Of a stretch of 64,000 nt of DNA, positions 5,518 through 58,607 are shown piece after piece. The notes beneath the pieces were generated by a model. It was not told the origin of the DNA, made no database searches, and saw only the letters and a program-made list of their open reading frames with translations. Numbering within the stretch: the first letter of the stretch is position 1; the number at the start of each line of letters is the position of its first letter. The stretch comes from a virus. Made by a program: the position numbers and the translations under genes. Location of the stretch: IMG/VR virus record IMGVR_UViG_3300037467_002824, positions 1 through 64,000 of that record; one strand, given 5' to 3'.

Positions 5518-5826
5518 ATGAATACCTGGCTGCAGAAGATCGCTCGCGCTGGCGCGATGGCCGCGAGCAACCAGTTCCTCGGCTCGAACTCGATGGCGAC
5601 CCCGGGTGCCGGAACGACTGCCGCTCCGAAGCTCCCGTCGCCGGCGCCGAACCTGAAGATGCAAACGCCGACCGCGGGCCCGCTCGACTCTTTGGGTGTC
5701 GCCCAGAACACGGGCGCAACGCTCAATCAGCAGACGATCTCGCACGGCGACAACCAGAACAAGGTGAACACCGCTCCGATCGTCCCTGGCATGATCCACC
5801 CGGCACACCCGAACCCGAACGCATGA
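5518..5826 (+). CDS. Hypothetical low-complexity protein
   Basis: 102 aa from ATG 5518 with GAGGTG upstream. Pro/Ala/Asn-rich. Confidence 0.4.
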   Translation: MNTWLQKIARAGAMAASNQFLGSNSMATPGAGTTAAPKLPSPAPNLKMQTPTAGPLDSLGVAQNTGATLNQQTISHGDNQNKVNTAPIVPGMIHPAHPNPNA

Positions 5827-6434
5827 GTGGCTACGCGCTCACTGATGAGAACGCACCGGGGCTGAACACCGGCACCGATCGCGAGATCGACGATCAGCCG
5901 CCTGGCAAGGACTGTCTGGGGCTCATCCCCGGCACCGGCGACGCCTACCCAGGCCGTCGCAATGCGACTGCGCGCCCGACTCTCGAAGAAGTTGCGTCCG
6001 CTCTGGCGGACCATGACCGCTTTCAGAGCTACGGCGGGTGGTCACCGACCAATGCCGTCGACGCCGACCCCTACCTCTACAACACGAGCGATCGTCAGCC
6101 GGTGATGCCGATGGAAGTCACGGGAGCCCTCTGGGATTACCTGGTTAAGGGTGCCGAGGATCTCAATTACTCAGGGCTTTTCGACACGGACCACATCGAT
6201 CCGCGCATGCCAGAATCCCTGCAGAATCTGCTTGACCAGGCCCTCCGAACGGGCACTGGCGTCACCGGCGATCAGGCGGTGGCGAAAGCATTCGACGACT
6301 TGCGCGTGATGGACAACGGAACCAGCACGATGAACACCCAGGGCGACGGTACCGCCGGCGCGCCCTTGTCAGGCAAGGAGGCGGCGATGCGGGCCCGACT
6401 GGACGCCCGTCGCCGATACAACGCGTGGCTCTGA
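5823..6434 (+). CDS. Hypothetical acidic protein (head/neck region)
   Basis: 203 aa. ATGA start/stop overlap with the upstream ORF. No motif recognised. Confidence 0.5.
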   Translation: MSGYALTDENAPGLNTGTDREIDDQPPGKDCLGLIPGTGDAYPGRRNATARPTLEEVASALADHDRFQSYGGWSPTNAVDADPYLYNTSDRQPVMPMEVTGALWDYLVKGAEDLNYSGLFDTDHIDPRMPESLQNLLDQALRTGTGVTGDQAVAKAFDDLRVMDNGTSTMNTQGDGTAGAPLSGKEAAMRARLDARRRYNAWL

Positions 6435-8144: not shown

Positions 8145-10967
8145 ATGGCACGTCCTATCGTCCTCGTCTTCCAGGAGCTGGCGAACACGTCGATCACCCC
8201 CGTGACGCCGGACCTGCAGACGATCATCGTCGGGCCCGCGTACGTGATCAACGATTACCCGGACGACGCTGCGAACATCCTGCTGAGCGACGCATACGGT
8301 ACCGCTGATGGTGCTGCGAAGACGGCAGGTTCCGCAGTGGCGTACCAGCCGCCCGCTTCCGGTGTGACGACCATCGACGTCACTTCGTACCCGAACAACG
8401 CTGCGGGCGCGATCGTCGACCACGACAGCGTTCAGCTCTGGCTGAAGCTTCCCCGCGTCATCATGGGTTCGACGTACCTCGCTGGAGGTATTGCTCCGGC
8501 GATTGGCGCAGCGATCACCACGTCGAACGGCGCGCCGGACGACCTGAACAAGATCACCTTTGCGATCGGCCAGGACCTCGCTGCCACCTACGGCATCCAG
8601 GCCGGCGACATCATCATGCTCACCGACTCGGCGGGCAACACACTGAAGCGCACCGTTCTGTCGGTCGGTGAAGGCGGAACCACGGTCAACGCACTCCGCG
8701 TGACGCAGAACCTCCCGGCTTCGGGGTGGACCTTCGACAACGCCGGCGGCGCTCGTATCGAGCGTCAGCTTGTGACCCAACAGGTCTCGGACCCGAGCGG
8801 CACGATCCTCGTCTTCCCGGAAGCGACTTCGAACGAACTGCTCATCAAGGGCGGCATTCAGCTCGGAGTGACTGTGGCCGGCGTGACGGTACAGCGCACC
8901 GTGGCGTACGCGCAGTGCTACCTCGCCTACCGCGCGCTCCGTCAGGACCTCCAGCAGGTCGACAGCTGCAACGCGACCGAGATCGTTACGAAGGTCGGCA
9001 AGATCGACGCGCGCAACCCGCTCGCGGTCGGCCTCTTCTGCGCTCTTCAGAATTCGGGCTCGGTCCGGATCAACTTCTACGGCGTGTCGTCGAACGACGC
9101 ACTCGGTCACGCGAAGTTCCGTGACGCGGTCAGCTCGCGCAAGGACCTCTACACGATCGTCCCCCTGACGACCGACACGAGCACGCTGCTCGCCTACAAG
9201 ATCGACAACGAGACGCTCGCCGATCCGACGATCGCGAGCGACACGGGAGTCGTTCAGAAATTCCGTATGCTGCTCGGATCGGGCACGCTTCCGACGGATT
9301 CGACCGTGGCAGCAGGTTCGCCCCAGGCAACGCCGCAGCAGTCGGGCGCCAGCTCGACCAAGCATCGCACGATCAACGTTCTCTCGCCGGGCGGCGCGAA
9401 TCTCTCCGCGCTCGTTCCGGGCGACCTGGTGACGATCGGCCTCGTTCCCTCGGGTGGTACGTGGGCAGGCCGCCGCGGCACGCACTACGTGTCGCACCTG
9501 AACACGACGACGCAGTTCGAACTCGTTCCGACCAACGCGGCCTGGAACGACGCGGGTGACGACATCGGCCTCACGGGCGGCGGAAACCCGGGCGCCGAAA
9601 TCGTCGTGACTGACGCGTCGGGCCTGGCGGTCAAGTACAGCAAGCTCGCCTCGCTGTCGCGCACCGTCGGCGGTTCGACCATCGTCATCACGCACCGTAA
9701 CCCGGTTGTCTCGGGCGGTCCTTACCAGGTCGAGTACGTCGCCGGCGCGGCCCTGGCCGTGACGGTCTCGGGCTTCAACATCACGGTCACCTTCGTCAAC
9801 GCGACGACGACTTTCACGCAGGTGAAGGCCGCAATCGAAGCAGCGGCGGATGCGAACGCAGTGGTGACGGTCTCTCTGACCGGTGGCGGAGACCTCGTGA
9901 CGGCAGCGGCCCTGACGCCTCTCGCGCTCACCGGTGCGACGTCGGCGATCGGCACGGCCGTCAACGACAACTACTACGACATCCTTCAGGATGACACCGC
10001 AACGTTCCTCTCGTCGGGCGTGCTCCCGGGCGATCTCATCGAGATCCCGGCGAACCCGAACGACTACTCGAACAGCGCATTCGACGGAGCCTTCACCTCG
10101 TACGTCGTGACGAGCGTGATCAGCGAAAACCGCCTGAAGCTGACCCCCGCTTCGGACGACACAGCATCGGTTGCGACCGAAATCCCGCACGGCTACAGCC
10201 GCTCGGGTTCGGGCCTGATCGATGTGACGACTCCGACCGCGATCCGCTACCGCGTGCAGCGCGTTCTCAATAAGGACGCGCAGGTCACGGCGCTCATCGC
10301 ATACGCGCAGAGCTTCATGTCGAAGCGTGCCGCCCTCATCTGGCCGGATCAGTGCCTCGTCGCAGGCCTCGTCGACGGGTCGCTCCCGCGCTCTTCGCCG
10401 CTCGTGGCACAGTCGGCCGGCCCGCAGCCGGGCTACTACGGTGCGTGCTGGGTGGGCGGCGCGATGGCGGGTCTGCCGGCACAGCAGGGTCTTACGAACC
10501 TCGCGTTCGCCGGTGCGACCTCGGTGATCCACTCGACCGACTACTTCACCGATCCGCAGATCTCCAAGCTCTCGGATGGTGGATGGCTGGTACTGCAGCA
10601 GGACAACCCGATCGCGGCTCCGTACTGCGTCCACCAGCTGACGACCAACCCGTCGGCCGTGGAAACGGGCGAGATCTCGGTGGTGAAGGACCTCGACTTC
10701 ATCAGCGTGTACCTCGCAGGCATCCTGAACAGCTTCATCGGCCGGTACAACGTCACCGAGGACACCCTCTCGGAGATCAACCGGGCGGTGGTGCAGGGGA
10801 TGGAAAACCTCAAGCTCCGCAAGGTCGCGCGCATCGGACCGCCCCTCATCGAGGGCAAGGTCACGTCGCTCGCGGTCTCGTCGGTCAGCTCGGACCGCGT
10901 CGAGATCTACCTCGATCTCAAGATCCCGCGCCCGCTCAACCGCATCGGCCTCCACCTGGTGATCTGA
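8145..10967 (+). CDS. Tail sheath-like large structural protein
   Basis: 940 aa with a GGAG RBS. It is followed by tube-like and spike genes. The C-terminal ~90 aa (DFISVYLAGILNSFIGRYNV...DRVEIYLDLKIPRPLNRIGLHLVI) resemble the conserved sheath C-terminal domain. There are central Ala/Gly/Thr-rich insertions. The call rests on position and weak motifs only. Confidence 0.5.
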   Translation: MARPIVLVFQELANTSITPVTPDLQTIIVGPAYVINDYPDDAANILLSDAYGTADGAAKTAGSAVAYQPPASGVTTIDVTSYPNNAAGAIVDHDSVQLWLKLPRVIMGSTYLAGGIAPAIGAAITTSNGAPDDLNKITFAIGQDLAATYGIQAGDIIMLTDSAGNTLKRTVLSVGEGGTTVNALRVTQNLPASGWTFDNAGGARIERQLVTQQVSDPSGTILVFPEATSNELLIKGGIQLGVTVAGVTVQRTVAYAQCYLAYRALRQDLQQVDSCNATEIVTKVGKIDARNPLAVGLFCALQNSGSVRINFYGVSSNDALGHAKFRDAVSSRKDLYTIVPLTTDTSTLLAYKIDNETLADPTIASDTGVVQKFRMLLGSGTLPTDSTVAAGSPQATPQQSGASSTKHRTINVLSPGGANLSALVPGDLVTIGLVPSGGTWAGRRGTHYVSHLNTTTQFELVPTNAAWNDAGDDIGLTGGGNPGAEIVVTDASGLAVKYSKLASLSRTVGGSTIVITHRNPVVSGGPYQVEYVAGAALAVTVSGFNITVTFVNATTTFTQVKAAIEAAADANAVVTVSLTGGGDLVTAAALTPLALTGATSAIGTAVNDNYYDILQDDTATFLSSGVLPGDLIEIPANPNDYSNSAFDGAFTSYVVTSVISENRLKLTPASDDTASVATEIPHGYSRSGSGLIDVTTPTAIRYRVQRVLNKDAQVTALIAYAQSFMSKRAALIWPDQCLVAGLVDGSLPRSSPLVAQSAGPQPGYYGACWVGGAMAGLPAQQGLTNLAFAGATSVIHSTDYFTDPQISKLSDGGWLVLQQDNPIAAPYCVHQLTTNPSAVETGEISVVKDLDFISVYLAGILNSFIGRYNVTEDTLSEINRAVVQGMENLKLRKVARIGPPLIEGKVTSLAVSSVSSDRVEIYLDLKIPRPLNRIGLHLVI

Positions 10968-12331: not shown

Positions 12332-12345
12332 TAATCTTGGGGAGC

Positions 12346-13881
12346 ATGTCTCCCCCACCTCCCGCCCGAAACGGCCGGTTCTCCGGCCGCCCCGCCAACC
12401 TCGGACCCGAGGCCACTGGCGACCCTCTCTCCCCCGATTCTCAAAACGTCCGGCGAGGTTCCACCTGGAACGAGCCGCCGCGCGCCATCCGCGAACGCGG
12501 CCGGATCACCTCCGTAGACGCCAATCGGCGAGCGTACCGGGTCATGACCCTGGGCGGGCGGAGTCTGACCTGCCTGCGTATCCAGGAATCTCCCCAGGAC
12601 CACGCGATGCTGCCGATCGGCACCGACGTGCGGATCGACTGGAGCCTGGGTCTCCCGTACATCGACGGAGTCCTTCCGTCCGAAGGTGACGTTCCGGATT
12701 CGACCCAGAATCCGGTCGACAACCCGACCGGCACCGAGGGTTTCGGGGTGAATGACCCGGTTCTCGACCGTAACTACGGCGCCAACGGCCGCGCGCCAGG
12801 CGCCCCGACTGACGTCCTCCCGGGAGACTTCGTCCGACGCAGCCCGGACGGAGCGACCGTCGCAGCAATGTCAGGGAAAACCGCTCTTCTTCACGGCGGG
12901 CACCTCGCCCAGCTCCTTCTCTTCGGCAACGAAGACAAGGCAGAGCTGATCGCAGGGATCTTCCGGCTGATCACCTGGATGGGCGAATCGAAGATCACCA
13001 ACGAAGGTGGCCGGACCTCCTTCATCTGGAGGGGCGGCGCCAACCAGCTGTCCGAAACGGGTTCAGATGAAGAACGCTACACGATCCACCTGGATGTGGG
13101 AGCAACGGGTAACCTGGTTAACTTCCGCATCACTACGATCGACCAGCAGACCCTTTTCCAGGCGCACATCACGGGCGAAGGCCACGTAGAGATCTTCGGG
13201 ATCGCGGGGCTGGACTCGACCTTCACGAATCGATCAGGCTCCGGCCACGTCCAGCGTTTCGACGGCGATGTCTCTCGTACATTCCAGGGTGCGGTGACGG
13301 AGACTGTGACTGGAAATCGTTCGACCACAGTCGAATCCGACGCGACCGAGGAATTTTCGAACAACCTGTCGCAACGGGTCGGGAACGACTGGAACGTCCG
13401 AGCCAACCGGAACGCTGAACTCAGCGCCGGTGGCGGCATGTCCCGTCGCGTCGTGGGCGACGACAACAAGCAGGTCGGCGGCAAAGAACTGAAGACGATT
13501 CAAGGCGATGCCGAAGACACCATCCGAGGGCACAAGCACTCGTATGCCGACGGCGTCAACGAGGTCAAGTCGGTCAACGACAAGGTCATGGTGACCTGTC
13601 AGAACGGCAATTTCGAGTGTGATGCCGGCGGCAACCTCGCGCGTTTCACCTGCCAAGCTATGGAAGTTGCTGGGAATACGAACAACGCGGTCCTCTACAA
13701 CGAACTGAACCAGATCCTCAGCGAGTTCATCTCGAACTACGTCGGTCACACTCATCAAGTCTCTACAGCAGGTTCTGCGACCGCTCAGACCGGTCTCGCA
13801 AGCCCGCCTATCGATTCCACTTCTGGTCTCAGCGCACGTCTTCCTCAGATGCAGTCCCAGAAATTGAAGTTGGGCGGCTGA
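12346..13881 (+). CDS. Baseplate central spike, gpV/gp5/VgrG-like
   Basis: 511 aa from ATG 12346 (GGGGAG RBS; track start 12337 is TTG). OB-fold pattern GRITSVDANRRAYRV..LPIGTDVRIDWSLGLPYIDGVLP, a beta-helix-like middle, and a C-terminal HxH apex motif NYVGHTHQVS. Confidence 0.55.
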   Translation: MSPPPPARNGRFSGRPANLGPEATGDPLSPDSQNVRRGSTWNEPPRAIRERGRITSVDANRRAYRVMTLGGRSLTCLRIQESPQDHAMLPIGTDVRIDWSLGLPYIDGVLPSEGDVPDSTQNPVDNPTGTEGFGVNDPVLDRNYGANGRAPGAPTDVLPGDFVRRSPDGATVAAMSGKTALLHGGHLAQLLLFGNEDKAELIAGIFRLITWMGESKITNEGGRTSFIWRGGANQLSETGSDEERYTIHLDVGATGNLVNFRITTIDQQTLFQAHITGEGHVEIFGIAGLDSTFTNRSGSGHVQRFDGDVSRTFQGAVTETVTGNRSTTVESDATEEFSNNLSQRVGNDWNVRANRNAELSAGGGMSRRVVGDDNKQVGGKELKTIQGDAEDTIRGHKHSYADGVNEVKSVNDKVMVTCQNGNFECDAGGNLARFTCQAMEVAGNTNNAVLYNELNQILSEFISNYVGHTHQVSTAGSATAQTGLASPPIDSTSGLSARLPQMQSQKLKLGG

Positions 13882-22978: not shown

Positions 22979-23186
22979 CGCGGTTCACCACATCGGTGTG
23001 GATCAACTCTTGGTCGATCAGCTCTTCAAACGTGAGATAGTGCGGCCGTTGGAGAGGCGGAGCTGCGGGTTCTGGCGGCTGCGCTTCCGAATTCAGCTGC
23101 GCTGACGCGTCGATCGGCACGCGTGCCGCGTCCTCGCCGTCGAGGACGAATGCACCGTAGGCATCGATCGTGGGCGGCGAAGGCAT
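22971..23186 (-). CDS. Hypothetical small acidic protein (first gene of inverted block)
   Basis: 71 aa, overlapping the downstream gene by 8 nt. Pro/Ala/Glu-rich. Confidence 0.4.
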   Translation of the reverse strand: MPSPPTIDAYGAFVLDGEDAARVPIDASAQLNSEAQPPEPAAPPLQRPHYLTFEELIDQELIHTDVVNRDE

Positions 23187-23224
23187 GCTCGGTTCCTATC
23201 ATAGAGCCGAGGCAACGCCGCACA

Positions 23225-26200
23225 ATGAGCCTGGTTCCTAAGAGCGTAAACCTTCGGGCCCTGCAGATCGGTATCGAAACCTCTGGGGGCGGCTCCGGGT
23301 TCATTTCGGACGACGGCGCCACGCCGATGACAGCCGATTGGAACATCGGTGGGCACAAGATCACAAGCCTCCTTGACCCGGTTAACCCATTCGACGCGGC
23401 CACTAAGAACTACGTCGACCTGGTAGCTCAAGGGCTTACGGCTAAGCCAGCGGCCACGGTTACATCGCAAACGAACATCGTTTTGTCGGGTACACAGATG
23501 ATCGACGGAGTCAACACCGTCGATGGCAACATCGTTCTTCTGCGAGGCCAAACGGATCCGATCGAAAACGGTATGTGGGTCGTCCACGCCGGCGCTTGGG
23601 CCCGTCACGCGGATATGCCGGCAGGGTCGCACGCCGGCGGTTCGTTCGTATTCGTCGAACAGGGCGGTCTTTACGCCGACACCGGTTGGGTTTGCAGTTC
23701 GGACTCGCCGAACGACATCGTCGGTACGAACAATCTCAACTGGGTACAGTTCTCCGGCGCGGGCGCGTATAGCGCTGGTACAGGCCTCGATCTCACCGGC
23801 ACCCAGTTCTCAGTGCTTTACGGTACGACCGCAGGCACCGCTCTCGAAGGTTCTCAGGACGCGAACTACGTACACCTCACCGGAACCGAATTCGTCGGCG
23901 GGGCCAAGACGTTCACGAGTGGTCTCACGGTCCAAGGCACGGACTTCGTCGCGCAGACGAATGCGTACGTAGCCAGCCTGACGGCATACACACTTTCGAA
24001 CGACTTCACGGTTCGCTTTCCTGCCGCCTTCAACTTGAAGTTCCAGACGTGGAACGGCACGACCGCTACAAACGTCGCACGTCTCACGTCTACCTTCGGG
24101 CTACAGATCGGGGACACGACGACCTGGTCGTATCCGGGCGTCCTGATCGCGAACCAAAACGTCCGTGCCGGATCAGCAATCTACTCCATCGACCTGTTCG
24201 GTTTTCCAGCGATCATGCTCGGCGCGAACGGAAACGACGTTTCTCTGTCGTCATTCAGCTCGACGGGTGTTCTCTATCTGAACAACGCTGTTGCTGCTAA
24301 CACTGTCATCAACAGCGGCAACAACACGTTTCACGACATTCTCACGCTGACGTCGCCGACGATCTTCGTGACGCCCGCAGCCGGCTACGGCTCCGCGCTC
24401 GCGTTCAAGCCCGCCAACGCTGCCGGAACGGGTGTGGTCTCGGGCCGTATCACCTCGGTGTGGTCGAATGCAGGCGCTGGCACGGAAGTCGGCGCCATGA
24501 CGTTCCAGACCCTCACAGGCGGTTCGCTCACGGAGCGCATGCGCATCGCAGGGAGCGGCGGCGTCACTATCGGTACAAGCGGAACTGATCCCGGAACGGG
24601 TGTCCTGCGTGTTGAAGGAAACGAAATCCTCACCACAACCACAGCTGCAACAGGCGGTGCGCAGCTTGTTTCCTCTCCGACGTTCACGATGCGCGGCGCG
24701 GCGTGGAATGGCTCGTCGAGCGCGAATCAGGACGCAGCATGGGGGTACACGCCGCAGGGTACACAAGACGGAACGCTCGGCCTCTCGATTGGGGGTTCGA
24801 CCATCTTCCGTTTCCAACGAAGTGCTCAGTCATTCCCCGCTACGCAGGCAGCGATCGTTGTTGGTGTCGGAACGTTGAACGCGGTTGCGTTGGGAAGTTC
24901 TGAAGGCTTCGGCAACGTGTTCGAATACTACGACACGTTTACGATGGGAAAGTCGGATACGGCGGGACACGTTGGATATCTCGGGTTCACGCCTGACTCT
25001 TTCACAACACACCTGAAGATCTGGAGCACAGGCAACATTCGGATCGGTTCTACGAACACCGACCCAACCTACAAACTCCAAGTCGATGGCACAACGAATA
25101 CGACGTCCTACGCCGTTGTCTCACGTCTCATGGTCGCGGACGGCGTCTTCACGGCGAGTTCTGCGGACCCTGGTGCAGGGAACATTCTTCTGGGGAATGC
25201 AAAAACATTCTACGGACGAAACGCAGCGAACAACGCGAATCTCTCACTTCTGACTCTCGACAGCAGCAACAACGTTGTTCTCGGTAACAACGTCACGTCC
25301 CAATACGCGGTTGCTCGTGCGGTCAACGGTGGCGCGTTCATCGTCCAGAACGGGGTCGACAATTTCCACCGGATGCTCTCGGATGGCGGTACCTACGTCA
25401 TCGGACCGGCAGTTCTCGATACGGGGACGACGACGCCAGCCGCTTCGACGATTCGTACACCCAACATCGCATCAGCGTCCAACATCGCACCCGGTGCATT
25501 GAATCTCGCGACAGGTTCGGGACGCGGATCTGGCGCCACCGCCTTCATTGCGTTGCAGACGAACGTTCCGACAAGTCCAGGAACCGGTGCGCAGTCGGTC
25601 GTTTCTCGTATGACAGTCGGCGCGGGCGTGATGGTGAACGACGGTGTGTTCACGACCGCGTCAGATCCAGGGTACGGCAACGTTTTGCTGGGGAACACGA
25701 AGACTCTCTACGGACGGAATGCGGCGAACGGCGGAAACATTGGTCTCATTGGTCTCGATAGCAGCGACCGAGTAGTAATGGGAAACGCTACGGCCGGCGC
25801 GATGACGTTGCGCTTCCAGCAGCAAGACGGGCTGACCTTTCAGACCTGGAATTACAACAGCGGGGCGTACGAATCGATCTTCAACTGGGGCGGAACTGAA
25901 CTCACGATCGGTGGCGGATCCCAGATCGATGCGATCTATGTCGATGCCGGAGCAGCAGGAAGCTTGGTGCTGAGCGCCAACGGTCCCACACAAGTCTCGT
26001 TCGGCTCAGGTTCGATGAACTTCCAGAGTTGCGGATTCTGGTTCGGTGGTCTCGGAATCTACACGGCGAACCACACGATCGCGTACACCGAGAACGTAGC
26101 ATTGGGTGACGCGACGGGCGGGGCGTTCAACTTCCAGCTTCCGAACCCGAATCGTGCTGGATTCGGACTCTGGGTGAAGAACATCGGAACGGCCAACAAC

Positions 26201-26320
26201 GTGACTCTCGTCCGGAACGCGGCGGAGAAGATCAACGGTACCGCCGCCAACTTCGCGGTGACACCCGGAGTGGGCGGGTTCCTCGTATCGGATGGTACGG
26301 ACTGGCACTTTGTGCGATGA
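23225..26320 (+). CDS. Tail fibre protein
   Basis: 1031 aa from ATG 23225 (track ORF starts at 23123 without an RBS). The N-terminus ADWNIGGHKITSLLDPVNPFDAATKNYVD is the conserved tail-fibre opening. The body is long and Gly/Thr/Asn/Ser-rich. Confidence 0.7.
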   Translation: MSLVPKSVNLRALQIGIETSGGGSGFISDDGATPMTADWNIGGHKITSLLDPVNPFDAATKNYVDLVAQGLTAKPAATVTSQTNIVLSGTQMIDGVNTVDGNIVLLRGQTDPIENGMWVVHAGAWARHADMPAGSHAGGSFVFVEQGGLYADTGWVCSSDSPNDIVGTNNLNWVQFSGAGAYSAGTGLDLTGTQFSVLYGTTAGTALEGSQDANYVHLTGTEFVGGAKTFTSGLTVQGTDFVAQTNAYVASLTAYTLSNDFTVRFPAAFNLKFQTWNGTTATNVARLTSTFGLQIGDTTTWSYPGVLIANQNVRAGSAIYSIDLFGFPAIMLGANGNDVSLSSFSSTGVLYLNNAVAANTVINSGNNTFHDILTLTSPTIFVTPAAGYGSALAFKPANAAGTGVVSGRITSVWSNAGAGTEVGAMTFQTLTGGSLTERMRIAGSGGVTIGTSGTDPGTGVLRVEGNEILTTTTAATGGAQLVSSPTFTMRGAAWNGSSSANQDAAWGYTPQGTQDGTLGLSIGGSTIFRFQRSAQSFPATQAAIVVGVGTLNAVALGSSEGFGNVFEYYDTFTMGKSDTAGHVGYLGFTPDSFTTHLKIWSTGNIRIGSTNTDPTYKLQVDGTTNTTSYAVVSRLMVADGVFTASSADPGAGNILLGNAKTFYGRNAANNANLSLLTLDSSNNVVLGNNVTSQYAVARAVNGGAFIVQNGVDNFHRMLSDGGTYVIGPAVLDTGTTTPAASTIRTPNIASASNIAPGALNLATGSGRGSGATAFIALQTNVPTSPGTGAQSVVSRMTVGAGVMVNDGVFTTASDPGYGNVLLGNTKTLYGRNAANGGNIGLIGLDSSDRVVMGNATAGAMTLRFQQQDGLTFQTWNYNSGAYESIFNWGGTELTIGGGSQIDAIYVDAGAAGSLVLSANGPTQVSFGSGSMNFQSCGFWFGGLGIYTANHTIAYTENVALGDATGGAFNFQLPNPNRAGFGLWVKNIGTANNVTLVRNAAEKINGTAANFAVTPGVGGFLVSDGTDWHFVR

Positions 26321-51235: not shown

Positions 51236-52399
51236 TCAGCCCTCGAACTTCTTCCAGAGCCCCGGCGTACGGAACTCGTCGACGGGGACGTAGAACATCT
51301 CGTTCGTGTCCGCCCACTGCATGAACGCGAGGTTCGCGCTCGTCTTGTGGCCGCGTCGACGTCCCGTGCCGAGCACGTAGGCGAGGCGCTTGCTGCTCTC
51401 GTGGGTGTAGAAGCCCTCAGTGAGAACGAAGAACTTCGTTTCCGGCTCCCAGGCGGTGCCCGTCCACACTTCGCGCGTCCCGGCGTTCTCACGCAGGGTT
51501 CCGACTGCCATCGGCACCGGGCCCATGGCGGGTTCGGTCTTCGCCGAGCGTTCGAGCAGGCGCTGCTTGTAAAGACTCACGAGGAGTTCGGTCCCCGTGA
51601 TCATCACAGCGCCTTCCGGCCCGTGCGGCGTGACCTTGAGCCGGGCGAGCACCTCGCGGTGGTCGTCGGCCGTGATCGCGCCGGTGGCGGCTGCCGCGCC
51701 AACGAGGTTCTCAGCGGTCCGGCGCATCTCTCCGAGGGTCTCGTCGTTGATCGCACGACCGCGGTACTGCCTATCGAGTTCGCGGAACCCGATGAGCCAT
51801 GCTGGTGCTGACACCGGGTGGGCACGAGTCGACTTCTCACGGTCGTATGAGACGGCGGTGTCTGAAGTCTTTCCGCTGAGATGGTTCAACAGCTCTCCCG
51901 AGTCGCTCACGAGGTTCATGAGGTACGGGCCCTTCTTGCGCGGAAACTGATCGTCGAAGTCGGCGCCGTACCAGTACGGGCGCTTCGTCGTGTCCGTGAC
52001 GAAGTCCTGCGCCTCGTGACGAACTTCTACGTCGCCGTGGAAGCCTTCTGCCGCCGGCGGCGACTGCATGTAATCGTCGACGATCGCCTTGGACGGGAGG
52101 ATCTTCCGCAGGATGCTCTCCTGCTGCATCGTCTCCCGAATCAGAGCGGTGCCCGCCGCCGCAGCGTCTGCGAGAGCCTTCGCTTTCGCATGCTCCTTGT
52201 CGATGAGTTCGTTCATCAACGCTGCGCTGACCCGTTTACCCCAGTATGCCGGATCGCTGGCGTAACGATCGATCAGCTTCTGGTGTTCCAACGTGATGGC
52301 CTCGCCATCTTTGACGTACGGCGGGATAGCCATGGAGGGGAAAAGAGGACCTGCTCCCGAGAGCGGTGCGATCCCTACCATTCCTTCAGTGATCTTCAT
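51236..52399 (-). CDS. Hypothetical protein
   Basis: 387 aa. ATGA overlap with the upstream gene. No motif recognised. Confidence 0.55.
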   Translation of the reverse strand: MKITEGMVGIAPLSGAGPLFPSMAIPPYVKDGEAITLEHQKLIDRYASDPAYWGKRVSAALMNELIDKEHAKAKALADAAAAGTALIRETMQQESILRKILPSKAIVDDYMQSPPAAEGFHGDVEVRHEAQDFVTDTTKRPYWYGADFDDQFPRKKGPYLMNLVSDSGELLNHLSGKTSDTAVSYDREKSTRAHPVSAPAWLIGFRELDRQYRGRAINDETLGEMRRTAENLVGAAAATGAITADDHREVLARLKVTPHGPEGAVMITGTELLVSLYKQRLLERSAKTEPAMGPVPMAVGTLRENAGTREVWTGTAWEPETKFFVLTEGFYTHESSKRLAYVLGTGRRRGHKTSANLAFMQWADTNEMFYVPVDEFRTPGLWKKFEG

Positions 52400-53163
52400 G
52401 CCCAGAACTCCTTGTCTTGGACGAGCGAGTCTACCGCATGTTCGAGGTCCGTGGGAGACCCGTTGTTGTCGATCTTGCCGTCCACGAGGGCCTTGAAGTT
52501 CTCGTAGGTGGGCTCACTGGCATGGGTGTCCCCAGAGGGCTTCACGCGCCCGCTGGCGTCGACCCAGATGGCCTTGCCGCCCCAGTGGTGGGTCGCCCAG
52601 ATCTCGTTGTCGAAGCGGCAGTCGGTGACCGCCACGCCGACCGGCACGTCCACCGGGTAATCCGGGATGTCATCGAGCGAGAGACCGTACTCGCGGCTGT
52701 AGCCGAAACGGCCGGTCTTCAGGTTCGAGATCGTCACGCCGAGAGCGTCGACCCATACGTTCACGTAGACCGAGCGGCCCCACTCGGTGCCCATGCGCTG
52801 CAGGAAGTAGCGCGCCGTGCACTTCTCACGGTTCGACGCGAAGTGGGACAGCTCGCGGTAGAGGGCGATCCACGCTTCTTCCTGATGCTTCGGCGGGAAG
52901 AGATTCAGAATGCGCTGCTTGTTGGCAAGGATGCGATCCTCGCATTCGGCCCAATACTCGTTCGTGAAGACGCGGTCGTCGCGGGTAGCACGGAGCTTCG
53001 ACTCACCGAACATCACGTGCATCGGAAGATCGAAGATGAGACCCGTGGTGCGCTTCAGTTCGTCAGCGAGCGCCGCCACGATCCAATTGTGCTTCACTCG
53101 CAGGATCTCTGCGATCGTGTCCTTGCCGACGCCCATGTTTCCGACGAGTCCGAGAACCTTCAT
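52396..53163 (-). CDS. Deoxynucleoside monophosphate kinase-like P-loop protein
   Basis: 255 aa. The N-terminus MKVLGLVGNMGVGKDTIAEIL parallels T4 gp1-type dNMP kinases (G....GKDT). Confidence 0.5.
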   Translation of the reverse strand: MKVLGLVGNMGVGKDTIAEILRVKHNWIVAALADELKRTTGLIFDLPMHVMFGESKLRATRDDRVFTNEYWAECEDRILANKQRILNLFPPKHQEEAWIALYRELSHFASNREKCTARYFLQRMGTEWGRSVYVNVWVDALGVTISNLKTGRFGYSREYGLSLDDIPDYPVDVPVGVAVTDCRFDNEIWATHHWGGKAIWVDASGRVKPSGDTHASEPTYENFKALVDGKIDNNGSPTDLEHAVDSLVQDKEFWA

Positions 53164-53396
53164 CGCTTTACTCCTGCAAGGGCCACTGCCAGTTCGAGAG
53201 CTTTCCGTTCAGCCCCGCGCCACGATCCCGCGGGGGCTCTACACGTCCACCCACCGCGGTATACGATCACTTCGAAGAGGCGCTTGTCCAGCCTGTGGAC
53301 ATTCACCGTGATCGGGTGGGTTCGGCCTACGCGTACCTGGCCGTAACGGTGAAGACCGTCACAACAGTTACCCGTCCATTCGATGGTGGGAGCCAC
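53160..53396 (-). CDS. Hypothetical small protein
   Basis: 78 aa. Its stop overlaps the downstream ATG (ATGA). Confidence 0.4.
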   Translation of the reverse strand: MAPTIEWTGNCCDGLHRYGQVRVGRTHPITVNVHRLDKRLFEVIVYRGGWTCRAPAGSWRGAERKALELAVALAGVKR

Positions 53397-53452
53397 GCAA
53401 TATCACTACGTCAGCTGGGCCCGCATTGTAAAGAACCGAGCCTTAACCCAGT

Positions 53453-56098
53453 TCAGCGCCGCTTGAAACGCCAGGTGGCACGGTAGGCCCACGCCGCACC
53501 GTAGTCCGAGTCTTTCCAGGCGCCTACCGACCAGTGCGGTAGATGGCCAGAGAACGGTTCGATCGCGCCTCCCGCGTTGCCAGTGATCATCTCACTCAGC
53601 GTGACGAGATCCGAGAGATTGGCGTGGTAACCGGCGGTAGAAGCGAGCGCTTCCCCGATCGATCCGATCGACTCAGAGAGATTCACTACGTACCCCGCGT
53701 GGACCGCAAGCGATTCGCTCAGCGTTACCGTCTCGGCAAGCGCGACAGTCGTTCCCCACTGCGATTGCAACGCTTCAGCATTCGACACTGTCTCGGCGAG
53801 GCCTTCTGTGAAGGCTGCGCTCGATGCCATCGACTCCGAGACGTTCACCGTCTCAGCGACGTTCGAAGAAAGTCCTGCGCTGGCCGCGACAGCCTCCGAG
53901 TTGGCAACCGTCTCGTTAAGCGCAGCGGACATGCCAACACTCGTCTGAACAGCTTCACTGGTCGTAACGGTCTCGGATACCGACGCTGTCGAACCTTGGC
54001 TCACTGCAGCGCTCTCCGAGAGATTGATCGTCTCGGAAAGGCCAAGGCCAAGATCGACGCGGACTACGACAGCCTCCGTCCAAGAGACAGTCTCGGAAAG
54101 ATCGACGTTCGTTCCACCGCCATCAGTACCCACCGATTCGATGAGGGTGACCGTTTCACTGACCGCCGGGTTGTACGTGGCTTGGGCGGCAACCGCTTCT
54201 GAAGTCGTGACCGTTTCCGAGACCCCAGCTGTTGCGTCTTTCTGCGCAACCAGGGCTTCGCTTGTTGTCACCGTCTCCGAAACCGACGGGGTCGTCGCGA
54301 CCTGCGCCGATACCGCTTCCGCGTTCGTGACGGTCTCACTGACGTTGGCCGAGAAGCCCTGCGAGGCTGCGGCTGCTTCACTCAGGGTGACGGTCTCACT
54401 CACGGCGCCGGTCGTTCCACGTGACGCCGCCAACGACTCACCCACCACGCCAACGTTCTCGGATACCGCACCCGAGGTGGCCATCTGCGCAGCGACCGCT
54501 TCAGTCCACGAGACCGTCTCGGACAAGCTGACGGAGTCCGCGTCCTGCACCGCTGCGGCTTCCGAAAGAGCCACTGTCTCGTTCACCGCAGCGTTGAGCC
54601 CAGCGCTGGCCGCCACGGCTTCTGCCACCGTCACCGTCTCGGATACACCGGCGATGTTGCCCTTCGAGGCCGCCACGCTTTCGGCGTTGGTTACCGTTTC
54701 GCTGAGGCCCTCGGTCGCGGAAAGCTGCGCCGACACGGCTTCGGCGTTGGTCACCGTCTCCGAAACCGACGGCGTTGCCGCCAGCTGTGCTGAGACCGCT
54801 TCACTGTTCGAAACGGTTTCGCTGACGCCTACGGTGGCGCCGCGAGTGGCAGCAAGAGATTCAGCGAGAGAGACACTCTCACTAACCCCAGTGGTAAACC
54901 CTACGCTGGCTGCGAGCGCTTCGGCCACGCTCACGCTCTCAGTAGTCGAGACAATAGCGGCGTAGGCGGCAAGAACCGCTTCGGCGAGGGACACGCCTTC
55001 GCTCACGCCTACGGTCGCGTCTTTCTGCGCGGCCAAGGCTTCCGTCCAAGCGTCGGTCTCGCTCACGCCCACGGTAGCCGCGAGCACTGCCGAGAGCGAC
55101 TCGTTCCACGTCGTCCACGTCTCGGAAACGCCGACCGTGACTCCCCAAGCTGCCGCGAGCGATTCCCCGACCGCGCCAACGCCTTCGGTTACATCAACAG
55201 TGGTCGCTTTCGTCGCCGCAACGGCTTCGGTATTCGCAACCGTCTCACTTACGCCGACGTTCGCGGCGTAGCCCGCTGCAACCGCTTCACTGTTCGAAAC
55301 TGTTTCCGAGACGGGAACTACGTACCCAAGGAACTGCGCCAGCGATTCCGAGAGCGTGACGGTCTCTGAAACCCCTGTGGTCATTCCCTTCGAAGCCGCT
55401 ACCGACTCCGAAAGAGAAACCGTCTCAGACACATTACCGGTGTAGGCGGTGCTGCCCGCAGTAAAGGTCGGCGTCGTAATAAACGAGTTCGAACCAATCT
55501 GAATGACAACGTCACGGCTGGTATTGCCGCCCGCACCTGTGATGTTCCAGATAGGCTTGACGAACAGATATTCGTTTGTGAACGTAACGCTGCTCGGCGC
55601 GACCAAAGTACAAGTTGTGACTTGGGCAGCCGATGTCGTCAGGTTGACGACGCCTGCGTGAGAACCACTGCTACGGGTATCGATCGACGTGATGAGTGTC
55701 GGGCTCGATCCATCTGCATTTGCGCTCTTGTAGAGCCAGAATTCGAGCTGACCGTCTTGATCACTGCCGCTAGAAACCGCGATTACCGAAATGGACAGCT
55801 GCCACTGATCCGTAGTCCCATTCGCACCGAACGTTCCACTGAACGCACTTTGCGAACGAAAGCAATCGCCCGTGGTGTTGTTGGGAGCGGTTGCACTAGA
55901 CGGATAGGTTGTTGAGAAGACCGTCGCCGCCTGCTTGACGCCGAAGTCCATCAAACCGTAGTTGCTGGCCGCTGTCTTGGCGACCGTCCAACCCGTGCTC
56001 GTAGTGGCAGAACCAGGCGCAGACCCGCCGTCTTGCAACTGGCCGTGGTTGGCGCCTGTTGCGACAGAGTTCAGCAGATAGAACGTCTTGATCGCCAC
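53453..56098 (-). CDS. Repeat-fibre protein: 222-aa N-domain plus 31 x ~20-aa repeats
   Basis: 881 aa with a GTG start. Beta-rich N-domain, then 31 tandem units of consensus VSETV(T/S)x(S/A)EAVAAxxxxxxG, then a basic aromatic tail WAYRATWRFKRR. Confidence 0.65.
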   Translation of the reverse strand: MAIKTFYLLNSVATGANHGQLQDGGSAPGSATTSTGWTVAKTAASNYGLMDFGVKQAATVFSTTYPSSATAPNNTTGDCFRSQSAFSGTFGANGTTDQWQLSISVIAVSSGSDQDGQLEFWLYKSANADGSSPTLITSIDTRSSGSHAGVVNLTTSAAQVTTCTLVAPSSVTFTNEYLFVKPIWNITGAGGNTSRDVVIQIGSNSFITTPTFTAGSTAYTGNVSETVSLSESVAASKGMTTGVSETVTLSESLAQFLGYVVPVSETVSNSEAVAAGYAANVGVSETVANTEAVAATKATTVDVTEGVGAVGESLAAAWGVTVGVSETWTTWNESLSAVLAATVGVSETDAWTEALAAQKDATVGVSEGVSLAEAVLAAYAAIVSTTESVSVAEALAASVGFTTGVSESVSLAESLAATRGATVGVSETVSNSEAVSAQLAATPSVSETVTNAEAVSAQLSATEGLSETVTNAESVAASKGNIAGVSETVTVAEAVAASAGLNAAVNETVALSEAAAVQDADSVSLSETVSWTEAVAAQMATSGAVSENVGVVGESLAASRGTTGAVSETVTLSEAAAASQGFSANVSETVTNAEAVSAQVATTPSVSETVTTSEALVAQKDATAGVSETVTTSEAVAAQATYNPAVSETVTLIESVGTDGGGTNVDLSETVSWTEAVVVRVDLGLGLSETINLSESAAVSQGSTASVSETVTTSEAVQTSVGMSAALNETVANSEAVAASAGLSSNVAETVNVSESMASSAAFTEGLAETVSNAEALQSQWGTTVALAETVTLSESLAVHAGYVVNLSESIGSIGEALASTAGYHANLSDLVTLSEMITGNAGGAIEPFSGHLPHWSVGAWKDSDYGAAWAYRATWRFKRR
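53558..55432 (-). repeat. Coding tandem repeat, ~60-nt period, 31 degenerate copies
   Basis: In-frame 20-21-codon units inside 53453..56098. All six frames stay open across the region. Confidence 0.8.
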
Positions 56099-56101
56099 GA
56101 A

Positions 56102-56383
56102 TCACTCGATCCTCTCGAAGCGATACGTACATTCCGGATACAGTGCGACGTGCTCCGGTTTGGACGGCCAGACGTTACAACCGTTCAGGTACAACGCAGA
56201 ATCACGGCCTACGCACTCACCCAAACCGTCTTCTCGGCGCGCGAAATAGACGCACGGCCCCTGTTCGCTTTGGCAACAGGCGCCACAGCGGCAACAGTAA
56301 CCGGTGCGCCGCACTCTCCGCCCGTCTGCGAGGACGAACTCCTGCGGCTCTTCCTCCTGCAGGACGGGCAACGCGTAGGGCAT
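56102..56383 (-). CDS. YkgJ/UPF0153-type Cys-cluster (CxxCxxCC) protein
   Basis: 93 aa. GYCCRCGACCQ matches the CxxCGxCC signature of the zinc/iron-chelating YkgJ (FliB-related) family. Further Cys at ECVG, NGC and PEC. Confidence 0.55.
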   Translation of the reverse strand: MPYALPVLQEEEPQEFVLADGRRVRRTGYCCRCGACCQSEQGPCVYFARREDGLGECVGRDSALYLNGCNVWPSKPEHVALYPECTYRFERIE

Positions 56384-56384
56384 A

Positions 56385-57068
56385 TTACCCCAGCGTGATG
56401 GTGAATGTGATCGTGAGGGTGTCGGTGTTGGCGAGCGTGCGCTGTGTGAACGACAGCGCGTGGTTCATCGTGCCCGAGGAGGACGCGGTGAAGAGCGCAG
56501 CCTTCTGAGCCGACTGGGCACCGGTGGCCGTGAAGACCTTCTGGATGGTCGTCGTGTTCGTACCACCCGTATGGGCGTAGGTGCCCTGGGCGCGCGTGAG
56601 GCCGTTGGCCGCAATCTCGGTCGAGAGAGTGGTCGAGGCCGAGGTCTCGGTCAGCGTGTCGTTCGACAACGCGATGTAGTTGAGACCGTTGGTGCCGAGG
56701 CCCGACGTGCCGTATCCCTGCAGGTGCAGAAAGTCACGGCCGGCGGTGGTGATGACGTTGTACGTCTCCTCGACCGATACGACTTCGTAGCTGTCGGGGT
56801 CGGGCTGGAGACGAAGGCCGACGACGGTGGCGTCCCAACGCGCTTCCGCGGTCGGGAACATAACCAAACGATCGGCTGCTTCCTCGACCTGCTCGCGGGT
56901 GTAGACCTGCCCGCCGAGTCCGAAGAAGCGCATCGCGCGCCGATGTTCGATGGTGCCCTTGGCACGAGGAAGCGCGATCGGCTCTTCATCGAGCCGAACG
57001 TTCGCGGCGTAACCGCTCTGAACTGCAGCGCTATTGCCGATTGACTCGTTGAGATTGATCCCGCTCAT
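56385..57068 (-). CDS. Beta-sandwich protein carrying one copy of the fibre repeat at its N-terminus
   Basis: 227 aa. The N-terminus INLNESIGNSAAVQSGYAANV resembles repeat units of 53453..56098 (NLSESIGSIGEALASTAGYHAN; NSEAVAAGYAANVG). The C-terminal part (NVITTAGRDFL..YIALSNDTLTETSASTTLSTEI..KAALFT..DTLTITFTITL) looks like a fibre/receptor-binding jelly roll. Confidence 0.5.
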   Translation of the reverse strand: MSGINLNESIGNSAAVQSGYAANVRLDEEPIALPRAKGTIEHRRAMRFFGLGGQVYTREQVEEAADRLVMFPTAEARWDATVVGLRLQPDPDSYEVVSVEETYNVITTAGRDFLHLQGYGTSGLGTNGLNYIALSNDTLTETSASTTLSTEIAANGLTRAQGTYAHTGGTNTTTIQKVFTATGAQSAQKAALFTASSSGTMNHALSFTQRTLANTDTLTITFTITLG

Positions 57069-57122
57069 GTCCCCAGTATAAGGGCGAGCTAGGGTGACCT
57101 GGGGAAAAGGGCGAGCGACTGA

Positions 57123-57473
57123 TTACCGACTTGGCGGCGCGGTGGTGCAAAAGCGATTGAAGTCCTCGCCTTGCGCGTTTCCCAGAAAAATGAAAATTGC
57201 TCCGAGGATACCGACGCCGAGAGACGCGCCGCCGACTGCGTAACGAACGTCGCCGCTGGTCGGAAAGGCGGTGAGGATGCCGCCGCTCCCGCCGGCGAAG
57301 GCCGCGCCGGCGCCAAGGGCCCCGAAAACACGCCGACGGGTCAGCATGTCCCGGCACTGTTGATCGGACATGGCGATGAGCGCGCCGCGCATTCCAGGCA
57401 TCGGTTGCACGAGCGCACGAGCCTGCGTCGCGGCGCAGCCGCCGAGGGCCAAAGAAAGGGCCAGCCACTTCAT
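57123..57473 (-). CDS. Lipoprotein with glycine-zipper segment
   Basis: 116 aa from ATG 57473 (ATGA overlap). Signal peptide and lipobox MKWLALSLALGG-C. GALGAGAAFAGGSGG and GGASLGVGILGAIFIFLG. Confidence 0.55.
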   Translation of the reverse strand: MKWLALSLALGGCAATQARALVQPMPGMRGALIAMSDQQCRDMLTRRRVFGALGAGAAFAGGSGGILTAFPTSGDVRYAVGGASLGVGILGAIFIFLGNAQGEDFNRFCTTAPPSR

Positions 57474-57997
57474 CGGCGCACCACCTCTCGCCAGTCCTCC
57501 CAGCGGGTCAGGCGGCTTCGATCGGTGACGTGCTGGTTGTAGGGGCAGTCGAAGACGACGTGCCGCCAGTAGGGCTCCAGGACGCCCGTGATCTCGGGCT
57601 TGTCGTCGATGAGGATATCCCCCCGGACAACGGTCTTGTCGTGAGTGAAAATCGCCTTCCGCGCGATCTCCGGACCGAAGTGCCGGCGGAGCCAGGCCGT
57701 CTTCTCGGTCGTGCAGTGATCCGATGCCGCCGGCGTGGAGCAAACGAAGACCACATGGCCGTCCGCCACGATCTCCTGGATGGCCTGCTGTGCGCCCGGG
57801 ATCACGGGCAGATTCGCAAAGAGGCCCTCTTCGAACATCACCGGATCGATCAGGTGGTGATGCGATTCGGGGATGTGGTGGGACATGTTCCAGTTCTTCC
57901 ACTCGTCCAACCCCGGGAAGCCCTTGTTCTTCCAGGCCTGGCGGAAGCCTTCGACGAAGTTGGCGAGAACGCCGTCCATATCGACCAGTACGATCAT
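57470..57997 (-). CDS. 5'(3')-deoxyribonucleotidase (HAD superfamily, NT5C-like)
   Basis: 175 aa. HAD motif I VLVDMDGVLANF, motif II VFVCSTP, motif III/IV K..ILIDDKPE. Confidence 0.8.
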   Translation of the reverse strand: MIVLVDMDGVLANFVEGFRQAWKNKGFPGLDEWKNWNMSHHIPESHHHLIDPVMFEEGLFANLPVIPGAQQAIQEIVADGHVVFVCSTPAASDHCTTEKTAWLRRHFGPEIARKAIFTHDKTVVRGDILIDDKPEITGVLEPYWRHVVFDCPYNQHVTDRSRLTRWEDWREVVRR

Positions 57998-58230
57998 CGT
58001 TGACCTTTCACGATCTTCAGCGTCTCACGCGGCGCCACCACGGTGCACTTCGCCTGGATCTCCGCGATCCGGCGTTTCGGAATGTCGTAGTGCGGATAGC
58101 TGGCCCCGCTGTGAAACCAGCATCGCTTGATTCCCAAGTCATCTGCCATACGGTGGAGGTTCTCGACCGTATAGGGCACGCAGACCAGATGCCGCATGCT
58201 GTCGCAGTAGTACGTCAGGCCTTCGATCAC
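57994..58230 (-). CDS. DUF4031-like protein
   Basis: 78 aa from GTG 58230 (GTGA overlap; the track ATG 58281 would overlap the upstream gene by 55 nt). HLVCVPYTVENLHRMADDLGIKRCWFH..YPHYDIPKRR fits the DUF4031 pattern (..HL..D...ELH.FA..IG....W......HYDI). Confidence 0.5.
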   Translation of the reverse strand: MIEGLTYYCDSMRHLVCVPYTVENLHRMADDLGIKRCWFHSGASYPHYDIPKRRIAEIQAKCTVVAPRETLKIVKGQR

Positions 58231-58607
58231 AGGTAACCTCTCAGTTCGCCTGGATACTTGGCTCGGTCGAACTGTTCCCAAGCTTCTTCGACCGAGCCTC
58301 CATGCCCGTAGATGGTCAACGTGGCGGGAGAATCCTCACGAAGTGATACCGAGACTTCGACCCGGGCCCAGTAAGTCCAGCAGCCCGCAGGATCTTCAGG
58401 TGACGGGAAGATGTGAACTTTCGAAGTCACCCAGTAGTGCCACGCAGAGCACTTGATGTCCGCAATCTCCACCTTCTGAGATCGGAGGGCCCGATCCAGC
58501 TGTGCTTCGTGCAGCGCGGTCCAGAAGGGCGCCATGTCGAGGCCGGGCGAGCTGTGGATGAGCGCCGTCCAGCCCGGGACATCGATCTCTTCGTAAGAGA
58601 AGTTCAT
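58227..58607 (-). CDS. Hypothetical protein
   Basis: 126 aa from ATG 58607 (ATGA overlap). Trp-rich. No motif. Confidence 0.45.
   Translation of the reverse strand: MNFSYEEIDVPGWTALIHSSPGLDMAPFWTALHEAQLDRALRSQKVEIADIKCSAWHYWVTSKVHIFPSPEDPAGCWTYWARVEVSVSLREDSPATLTIYGHGGSVEEAWEQFDRAKYPGELRGYL

Follow-up and report, generated by a model that had tools for sequence, protein, structure and literature searches.

Two gene couplings meet in a three-gene phage module that may encode a rope-and-bead virion fibre

What is made by a phage protein that consists largely of 31 short repeats, and which of its neighbouring genes belong with it? The question is raised by a three-gene module at positions 53453–57068, minus strand, of a 64,000-nucleotide stretch (positions 1 to 64,000 of IMG/VR virus record IMGVR_UViG_3300037467_002824; hereafter, the window; G+C content 61.7%) that derives from an uncultured myovirus of ~191 kilobases (kb). 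In upstream-to-downstream order, the module encodes a 227-amino-acid (aa) protein (p227; 56385..57068), a 93-aa protein with a CxxCGxCC cysteine motif (Cys protein; 56102..56383) and an 881-aa repeat protein (53453–56098), the open reading frames (ORFs) being separated by 1 and 3 nucleotides (nt), respectively. This layout, including lengths, strand and spacing, is as given in an earlier reading made from the letters alone (the sequence-only reading), and represents a tightly packed, real module. That reading paired the Cys protein with the repeats. Comparison with other loci suggests instead that the conserved partner of the repeats is p227, and that the Cys protein travels with the N-terminal jelly roll of the 881-aa protein and not with its repeats. 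We tentatively favour the view, held with somewhat less than even confidence, that a beads-on-a-string virion fibre is built from two of the proteins, the 881-aa one serving as a giant ‘rope’ and p227 as the ‘bead’, with the Cys protein as an accessory factor.

Linkage was followed through loci from IMG/VR, Logan, JGI, NCBI and the metagenome-assembled genomes (MAGs) of GTDB, designated here by L numbers. Relatives of p227 led to 19 loci in IMG/VR, three in GTDB genomes and two found via short family members, and relatives of the rope led to two; L019 and L024 have too little downstream DNA to show whether a rope gene is present and were left out of the 24 informative loci other than the window. 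In every one of these 24, a p227 homologue is encoded upstream, on the same strand and ~0–4 kb from an ORF with the ETVxLSE-type 20-aa unit. The repeat is the sole element common to the rope ORFs at p227 loci, the other domains being variable. A relative of the 93-aa protein is present at none of the 24 and the N-terminal domain of the 881-aa protein (N-domain) only at two, L001 and L002. The pairing of a YkgJ-type protein with the repeat fibre is accordingly not borne out, nor are the three genes conserved together.

The contexts reached from the side of the Cys protein show the second coupling. In all five (L003, L004-6, L027-29, L030), the Cys gene lies upstream of an N-domain gene and abuts its start. 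What follows the N-domain varies: L003 has the same 20-aa repeats as the window, L027 and L030 have unrelated repeats, and in L004 the N-domain is a standalone 231-aa protein encoded between collagen-like genes. Moreover, in L037, a PhiTE/E217-like myovirus reached from the N-domain side, an uncalled Cys ORF (5703-6008; E-value (E) 4.8e-29 to the hidden Markov model (HMM) of the family) immediately precedes the gene of a tandem-N-domain protein. The five contexts and L037 together show four different repeat types downstream. The module of the window thus unites two couplings, one between p227 and the repeats and one that ties the Cys protein to the head.

The 93-aa protein was recognised by its motif, C30-x2-C33-G-x-C36-C37, and by a family profile; it has no domain beyond the Cys cluster, and neither it nor its four closest relatives match Pfam even at E ≤ 10. 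A profile of five sequences of the 93-aa family retrieved 205 small proteins among 1.84 billion representatives. Across 68 sequences, no change is seen at C30, C33, C36, C37, C44 or C57, and at least 90% retain C69 and C85. PF03692 is matched by 22 of the 68 profile-detected relatives (best E 1.1e-8). The protein thus appears to be a divergent YkgJ/PF03692 relative by transitive homology only, and in this sense its earlier assignment to YkgJ/UPF0153 holds, the motif being literally present. The N-terminal CxxCGxCC and further conserved cysteines are shared with PF03692, but the 93-aa subfamily is phage-borne, 80–130 aa long and linked specifically to a fibre-head jelly-roll gene. PF03692 includes the protein-lysine methylase FliB, and the sequence-only reading accordingly envisaged a FliB-like enzyme that modifies or matures a Ser/Thr/Glu-rich fibre, with p227 as the fibre tip. 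The motif, the transitive family membership and the operon-like tight spacing of the genes are consistent with such an enzyme. However, besides being missing from the other bead-plus-repeat loci (0/24), the Cys protein accompanies N-domains that have no repeats (L004) or other repeats (L027, L030, L037), its 93 residues leave room for little beyond the Cys cluster, and the C-terminal domain of p227 is far too conserved for a receptor-binding tip. We regard this model as improbable, and a FliB-like modifying activity of the 93-aa protein as pure conjecture.

If the repeats and the head have different partners, what are they? The 881-aa protein, taken from the ORF list, has a GTG start that is credible because its N-terminus (MAIKTFYL...) agrees with those of homologues. 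Its three parts are the N-domain (aa 1–222; 55433..56098), the 31 repeats of 20/21 aa proposed to be the rope (aa 223–846; 53561..55432), and a basic, Trp/Arg-rich C-terminal tail (aa 847–881 plus the stop codon; 53453..53560). The beta-rich 222-aa head, 31 units and basic tail of the sequence-only reading are confirmed. In a monomer AlphaFold2 (AF2) model built on a 32-sequence alignment, the head is all-beta from aa 1 to ~215, with predicted local distance difference test (pLDDT) values of 80–93 in the core, and pLDDT is 26–57 over aa 223–881, that is, the repeats and tail have no confident autonomous fold. Foldseek matches of the head include the C-terminal jelly roll of cocaine esterase (CocE; E 9e-4 to 9e-3), the carbohydrate-binding modules (CBMs) CBM16, CBM22 and CBM4, MAM and C1q, as well as a carbohydrate-binding domain from the short fibre of cyanophage A-1(L) (E 0.03); template-modelling (TM) values are low because the query model spans 881 residues. 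The matches place the predicted structure of aa 1–222 tentatively in the fold neighbourhood of galactose-binding-like/CBM jelly rolls.

The periodicity of the 881-aa protein is pronounced, with residue autocorrelations of 0.386, 0.314 and 0.287 at lags of 20, 40 and 60, respectively, over a background of ~0.08. The consensus of the 31 units, a few of which have 21 aa, is V-S-E-T-V-[TS]-[LNVW]-[SA]-E-[AS]-[VL]-A-A-[SQ]-x-G-x-T-x-G. Hydrophobic and small polar residues alternate along it, and Glu occupies position 3 in 30 of 31 units and position 9 in all of them. As the sequence-only reading had it, this is not a described fibre repeat. The comparison covered collagen, fibritin heptads, pentapeptide/hexapeptide beta-helices and the adenovirus shaft; no curated fibre or repeat model and no PDB sequence matches the 20-aa unit (Pfam, PHROGs, NCBIfam, PDB), and searches with the whole protein gave only Mis12 in Pfam (E 0.078), nothing in PHROGs and a compositional ‘serine-rich’ match in NCBIfam (54.8 bits, the cut-off being 650). 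In the C-terminal 39 aa, the isoelectric point is 9.98 and there are four Trp and six Lys/Arg; similar W/K/R-rich ends are found in the rope proteins P0012, P0038, P0046 and P0061. A basic tail was considered as a universal rope anchor and rejected: among 48 ropes whose C-terminus lies no more than 90 aa beyond the final repeat, the net charge is at least +2 in 15 and −2 or lower in 18, and the C-terminal ends of rope proteins fall into several unrelated classes.

The independence of head and repeats is also seen in the 71 database relatives of the 881-aa protein, which form two overlapping sets. The 20-aa unit is found in 62 metagenomic proteins, fused to LamG_3, GDSL esterase, SH3_3, DUF1080 and polysaccharide deacetylase domains, and the N-domain in 13, which often carry repeats of another kind, among them a 22-mer rich in His (P0020) and a 14-mer (P0011). 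Such a distribution indicates that head and repeat are independent modules. The number of units ranges from 5 to more than 35 among the rope relatives seen, and the positions of the Glu residues differ at some loci, for example L012, L025 and L037. Among 50,697 GenBank phage records, no match was obtained by megablast with 10 kb of the window or by tblastn with the 881-aa and 227-aa proteins, although the BLAST low-complexity filter may blunt the repeat query in the latter search. The bead family and the repeat are also nearly absent from the 185,579 species genomes of GTDB, with three matches only, all in MAGs. Neither is represented in Pfam or NCBIfam, nor in PHROGs apart from a weak match of p227 to a family of unknown function (phrog_5417, E 4e-4).

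What kind of protein is the partner of the repeats? More than 834 homologues of p227 were found, all unnamed and none with a Pfam domain, and the search of p227 itself against Pfam and NCBIfam gave nothing usable. The conserved part is the C-terminal domain (aa 93–227; 56388..56792), defined by the alignment and by DSSP on the AF2 model (mean pLDDT 79.9), which comprises a helix (108–119) followed by six strands of a beta-sandwich. These ~135 residues are 55–84% identical across the family, with R159, K189, R210 and H203 among the invariant positions, whereas the N-terminal part is variable. In Foldseek searches of the PDB with the p227 model, the only high-probability matches are phage whisker subunits, chains 9mt4_K/L/I/M of Bas63 and 9c39_K of Sf14 being among the top seven. 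The Bas63 chains superpose over ~100 of the 227 residues with probabilities of 0.91–0.98, target-normalised TM scores of 0.57–0.61 and root-mean-square deviations of 3.3–4.0 Å; over both structures the probabilities are 0.85–0.98 and the TM scores 0.56–0.61, but the E-values are 0.07–0.19. The whisker subunits Bas63 gp5 and Sf14 gp31 thread on the rope of a collar protein (PMC12609058). As the sequence-only reading had anticipated, both the head and the p227 C-domain are beta-rich, and both are beta-sandwiches in the AF2 models. Fold searches returned jelly-roll/CBM matches for the former and whisker matches for the latter, but the supposed fibre-tip character of p227 was not supported by them, the predicted fold being nearer to a whisker ‘bead’ than to a receptor-binding tip.

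Predicted viral structures give a broader picture. In BFVD, p227 has 31 matches at E < 1e-3, mostly uncharacterised phage and archaeal-virus proteins of 120–190 aa, of which a few are annotated as tail fibre or tail-collar fibre. In a profile search of PDB sequences with the p227 family, the best match is 26la_U (E 0.42, 30 residues). This chain, chain U of PDB 26la and 44nx, is a 171-aa ‘Structural protein’ in which NLIPQVGVDFL aligns with the helix motif NVITNAGRDFL of the p227 family; should it belong to a phage fibre, p227 might have no nearer relative of solved structure. The N-terminal part of p227 contains a rope-like segment of ~1.5 copies of the 20-aa unit (aa 4–36; 56961..57059): the stretch NLNESIGNSAAVQSGYAANV is similar to rope unit 3, VSETVSNSEAVAAGYAANVG, and tblastn with the repeat region as query aligns 38 aa at 39% identity. 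Family-wide, this likeness is weak, with scores of at least 5 bits against the unit HMM in 6 of 114 N-termini and in none of 570 shuffles. The rope-like units suggest either strand exchange between beads or a pseudo-substrate bound in cis.

Taken together, the whisker fold match, the linkage of p227 with the repeats, the lack of a predicted autonomous repeat fold and the separate genes led us to the proposal of a rope, the 881-aa protein, on which p227 molecules sit as beads. The carbohydrate-binding-type jelly roll would be the functional, probably glycan-binding, end of the fibre. The string would consist of the 31 short amphipathic beta-strand units (V-S-E-T-V-x-L-S-E-A-V-A-A), each with a Gly/Thr linker, which would not fold on their own. 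Many p227 C-domains would clamp successive units by beta-strand augmentation, stiffening the rope into a fibre, and some 31–60 beads might be carried by one rope, as calculated from the Sf14 ratio (~45 residues per four monomers) or from one bead per unit. The short basic Trp/Arg tail may anchor the rope to the particle, a weak suggestion given that rope C-termini fall into several classes. The 93-aa protein would be a metal-binding, YkgJ-type partner of the jelly-roll head and not of the repeats, acting as a folding or assembly factor or as a modifier. The rope-and-bead proposal is favoured by the conservation of both partners, with R159, K189 and R210 in a bead C-domain that is 55–84% identical and two Glu in each rope unit. 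Furthermore, the gene order after the portal gene in L001 and L018 mirrors that of Sf14, where portal is followed by gp30 (rope/collar) and gp31 (whisker).

Several observations weigh against this proposal. The Foldseek E-value of the whisker match is only 0.07, at best, over ~100 of 227 residues. At the level of sequence, hhalign gives a probability of 0.1% for the p227 family against Sf14 gp31, and the p227 and repeat-unit HMMs score below 0 in hmmsearch against Sf14 gp30, gp31 and gp38. Gross charge complementarity between bead and rope was considered and discarded, both being acidic (about −3 for the bead C-domain and −65 for the repeat region). AF2 packs p227 strand 37–45 on the C-domain of the same chain with pLDDT 85–96, so that p227 may close its sandwich with a strand of its own. 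Neither an Ig-like collar nor any other anchor could be recognised, and the sole globular domain of the 881-aa protein is the CBM-like jelly roll. The N-domain proteins of L001 and L002 occur without a Cys protein, and hence the coupling between Cys protein and head is not obligatory. Finally, the module lies among nucleotide-metabolism genes in this phage.

The low pLDDT of the repeats does not discriminate between models, since a homotrimeric shaft would also give low values for a monomer. In such a shaft, the 20-aa units would form a triple beta-spiral or a beta-helix, and p227 would be an assembly chaperone, or an adaptor or tip that docks via its repeat-like N-terminus. Most phage fibres are trimers, fibre–chaperone pairs typically show equally strict gene linkage, the ~1.5 repeat-like units of p227 could co-assemble with the shaft, and some of its BFVD matches carry a tail fibre or tail-collar fibre annotation. 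A homotrimer with p227 as an accessory accounts for the linkage and for the low pLDDT almost as well as rope and beads do. By contrast, it is the C-domain of p227 that shows both the conservation and the linkage to the repeats, whereas the repeat-likeness of the N-terminus is weak and variable; 62 invariant Glu stacked in a trimer with no basic partner in the chain (8 Lys/Arg in 620 aa) would be electrostatically unusual; and the best match of p227 among solved structures is a stoichiometric bead and not a chaperone. We therefore consider the homotrimeric shaft unlikely, although it is the alternative to be taken most seriously.

Does the module belong to the virion at all? As stated in the sequence-only reading, it sits in a minus-strand block far from the tail genes. 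It lies between the genes for a deoxynucleoside monophosphate (dNMP) kinase (52396-53163) and the 5'-nucleotidase NT5C (57470-57997), both on the minus strand in a replication/nucleotide-metabolism block that also encodes an SNF2 helicase and ThyX; the plus-strand structural block of the myovirus, with a sheath-like protein (8145-10967) and the baseplate hub (12337-13881), is ~35 kb away. A scan of 52900-58400 for promoters and terminators found none, including between the 881-aa gene and the downstream metabolic genes, and nothing sets the module apart. One could thus imagine that it is a moron or serves early in infection, perhaps as a scaffold inside the cell or at its surface, and is merely carried within the nucleotide-metabolism block. 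However, a signal peptide is seen in none of the three proteins on reading their sequences, and the gene of a Bas63 decoration protein also lies more than 10 kb outside the structural module (PMC12609058). Moreover, the bead–rope pair occurs elsewhere after the portal gene (L001, L018), baseplate genes (L002, L017, L031), terminase (L023) and sheath (L019). Its presence inside the structural operons of other phages argues that the pair is virion-associated despite its metabolic surroundings here, and a non-virion role appears very improbable. Judged by these positions, the pair behaves as a mobile structural cassette.

The repeats are not an assembly artefact either. A collapsed repeat array had been named as a possible flaw of the sequence-only reading, but the copies are diverged in their DNA, Tandem Repeats Finder reporting a single 36-nt array, which makes collapse unlikely. 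Furthermore, the 881-aa gene shows 0 mismatches in 2646 positions between the Logan and JGI assemblies of the same ~191-kb phage, and the module is present on 12 contigs of about 191 kb; identity in two assemblies and recurrence on these contigs exclude an artefact.

Other loci vary the composition of the cassette. At positions 5342-9300 of L037, the order is as in the window: a small beta-rich protein of 124 aa, the Cys ORF and a 1099-aa protein. The latter has two tandem N-domains and ~20-aa ‘GTLAATDLxDTSAIAG’ units, which look like a diverged rope repeat. No significant similarity between the 124-aa protein and p227 was found; it may be a divergent bead. In several loci, a ~145-aa protein (M..Y.....TTAT....A.IR....G.K..L.E......) is encoded between the bead and rope genes (L002 9521-9994; L010 12570-12998 and 13011-13460; L012 10459-10890; L022 6482-6928); the protein, which is not encoded in the window, may be a further optional part of the cassette. 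In L001 (12840-13166) and L002 (12331-12588), a gene just downstream of that for the rope encodes a small Ig-like beta domain, which in P0035, P0016, P0031, P0041 and P0045 is instead fused to the rope C-terminus, ending ...GEGKIRVLPSSL. Such fission and fusion suggests that this domain is a third partner in some cassettes.

Two small minus-strand ORFs flank the module. Directly downstream of the 881-aa gene, a 78-aa ORF with a GTG start (53160-53396) overlaps the start of the dNMP kinase gene and has no family match, including in NCBIfam. On the other side, a 116-aa ORF (MKWLALSLALGGC...; 57123-57473) ends 54 nt upstream of p227, and its ATG overlaps the NT5C stop codon. It has a lipoprotein signal with a lipobox and a C-terminal hydrophobic segment, VGGASLGVGILGAIFIFLG, and no NCBIfam match; its architecture resembles that of a unimolecular spanin or a superinfection-exclusion lipoprotein. 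Elsewhere in the window, a plus-strand gene (23123-26320) encodes a 1065-aa protein with strong matches to PHROG families of head decoration, virion structural and tail fibre proteins (phrog_2647, E 5e-32), which is a second large surface-type protein of the phage and is unrelated to the rope.

If the rope-and-bead proposal is extended to all these loci, a broader hypothesis can be formulated, which we consider possible, though on balance doubtful. The loci would represent an appendage family known from metagenomes only and built by templated hetero-polymerisation, in which the number of units in a single rope sets the length, a universal bead is recruited by strand complementation, and the heads (CBM-like, LamG, GDSL esterase, SH3, deacetylase) are interchangeable. 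Here, ~31–60 beads would yield a fibre of up to ~200 nm, an upper bound obtained from 620 residues at ~3.3 Å each by standard geometry, and the YkgJ-type metalloprotein would be specific to one head class. To our knowledge, the beads-on-a-string fibre design has so far been seen in three cultured phages only, in a much shorter form. If the hypothesis is correct, the fibres of GP4, Sf14 and Bas63, reported in 2023–2025, would not be a curiosity of three phages but instances of a modular principle widespread in uncultured phages. Two large ‘hypothetical’ families, that of the bead and that of the 20-aa repeat, would gain a role, and the conservation of a short repeat across proteins that otherwise share nothing would be explained. 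The design would also offer a programmable scaffold for display and phage engineering, with the length set by the repeat number and the head exchangeable. Independently, the link between a YkgJ-type protein and the jelly roll of a fibre head, which appears to be undescribed, provides a concrete, testable client for a family of largely unknown function.

How does the module compare with known systems? In the Ounavirinae phages Bas63 (gp5; PDB 9MT4) and Sf14 (gp31 with gp30; PDB 9C39), the former described as ‘beads on a string’, the Bas63 whisker monomer has a helix at its N-terminus and a small sheet next to an incomplete sandwich, which the rope completes; the Sf14 rope is made up of roughly 45 residues at the start of gp30, on which four whisker monomers sit (PMC12609058). 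The sequences of Sf14 used for comparison were taken from MF327003, in which the gp30 and gp31 genes are adjacent. Common to these systems and the module are adjacent bead and rope genes, a myophage genome and a non-globular rope made of a run of short beta-strand segments, which in our case are predicted; moreover, among solved structures, their small beta-sandwich subunit with its preceding helix is the best fold match to the p227 model. By contrast, neither p227 nor the repeat has detectable sequence similarity to its counterpart. The Ounavirinae rope is ~45 aa long, N-terminal on an Ig-like collar protein and bound by four beads, whereas the rope of the module has 620 aa in 31 regular units, is C-terminal to a CBM-like head and lacks a collar domain. 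The beads differ as well, with a ~135-aa core and a variable N-terminus here and 107–110 aa in Ounavirinae. The phrase ‘beads on a string’ also occurs in the E217 paper, but it denotes an ordinary tail fibre there and was rejected as a parallel.

In the Ralstonia podophage GP4, the rope is reported to be a separate protein that binds five Fiber-1 dimers and interlocks with an Ig-like collar at the tail (Zheng et al. 2023, J Mol Biol 435:168258, as cited in PMC12609058). GP4 resembles the module in that rope and bead are separate gene products, and differs from it in having far fewer binding sites on the rope and a collar at the tail. The comparison is indirect: with the p227 model as query, the 50 best Foldseek matches include no GP4 chain. 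A conceptual analogy is provided by donor-strand complementation in chaperone-usher pili, where an incomplete beta-sandwich is likewise completed by a foreign strand; p227 adds an N-terminal extension resembling the very strand that it is proposed to bind. The pili, however, are secreted by bacteria and built from another fold family, with no homology. Overall, as sequence membership fails and a collar is lacking, the module is not a member of the Bas63, Sf14 or GP4 families. At best, it is a larger variant of the whisker–rope construction principle, and its predicted fibre, if real, would be an order of magnitude longer than the Bas63 and GP4 examples.

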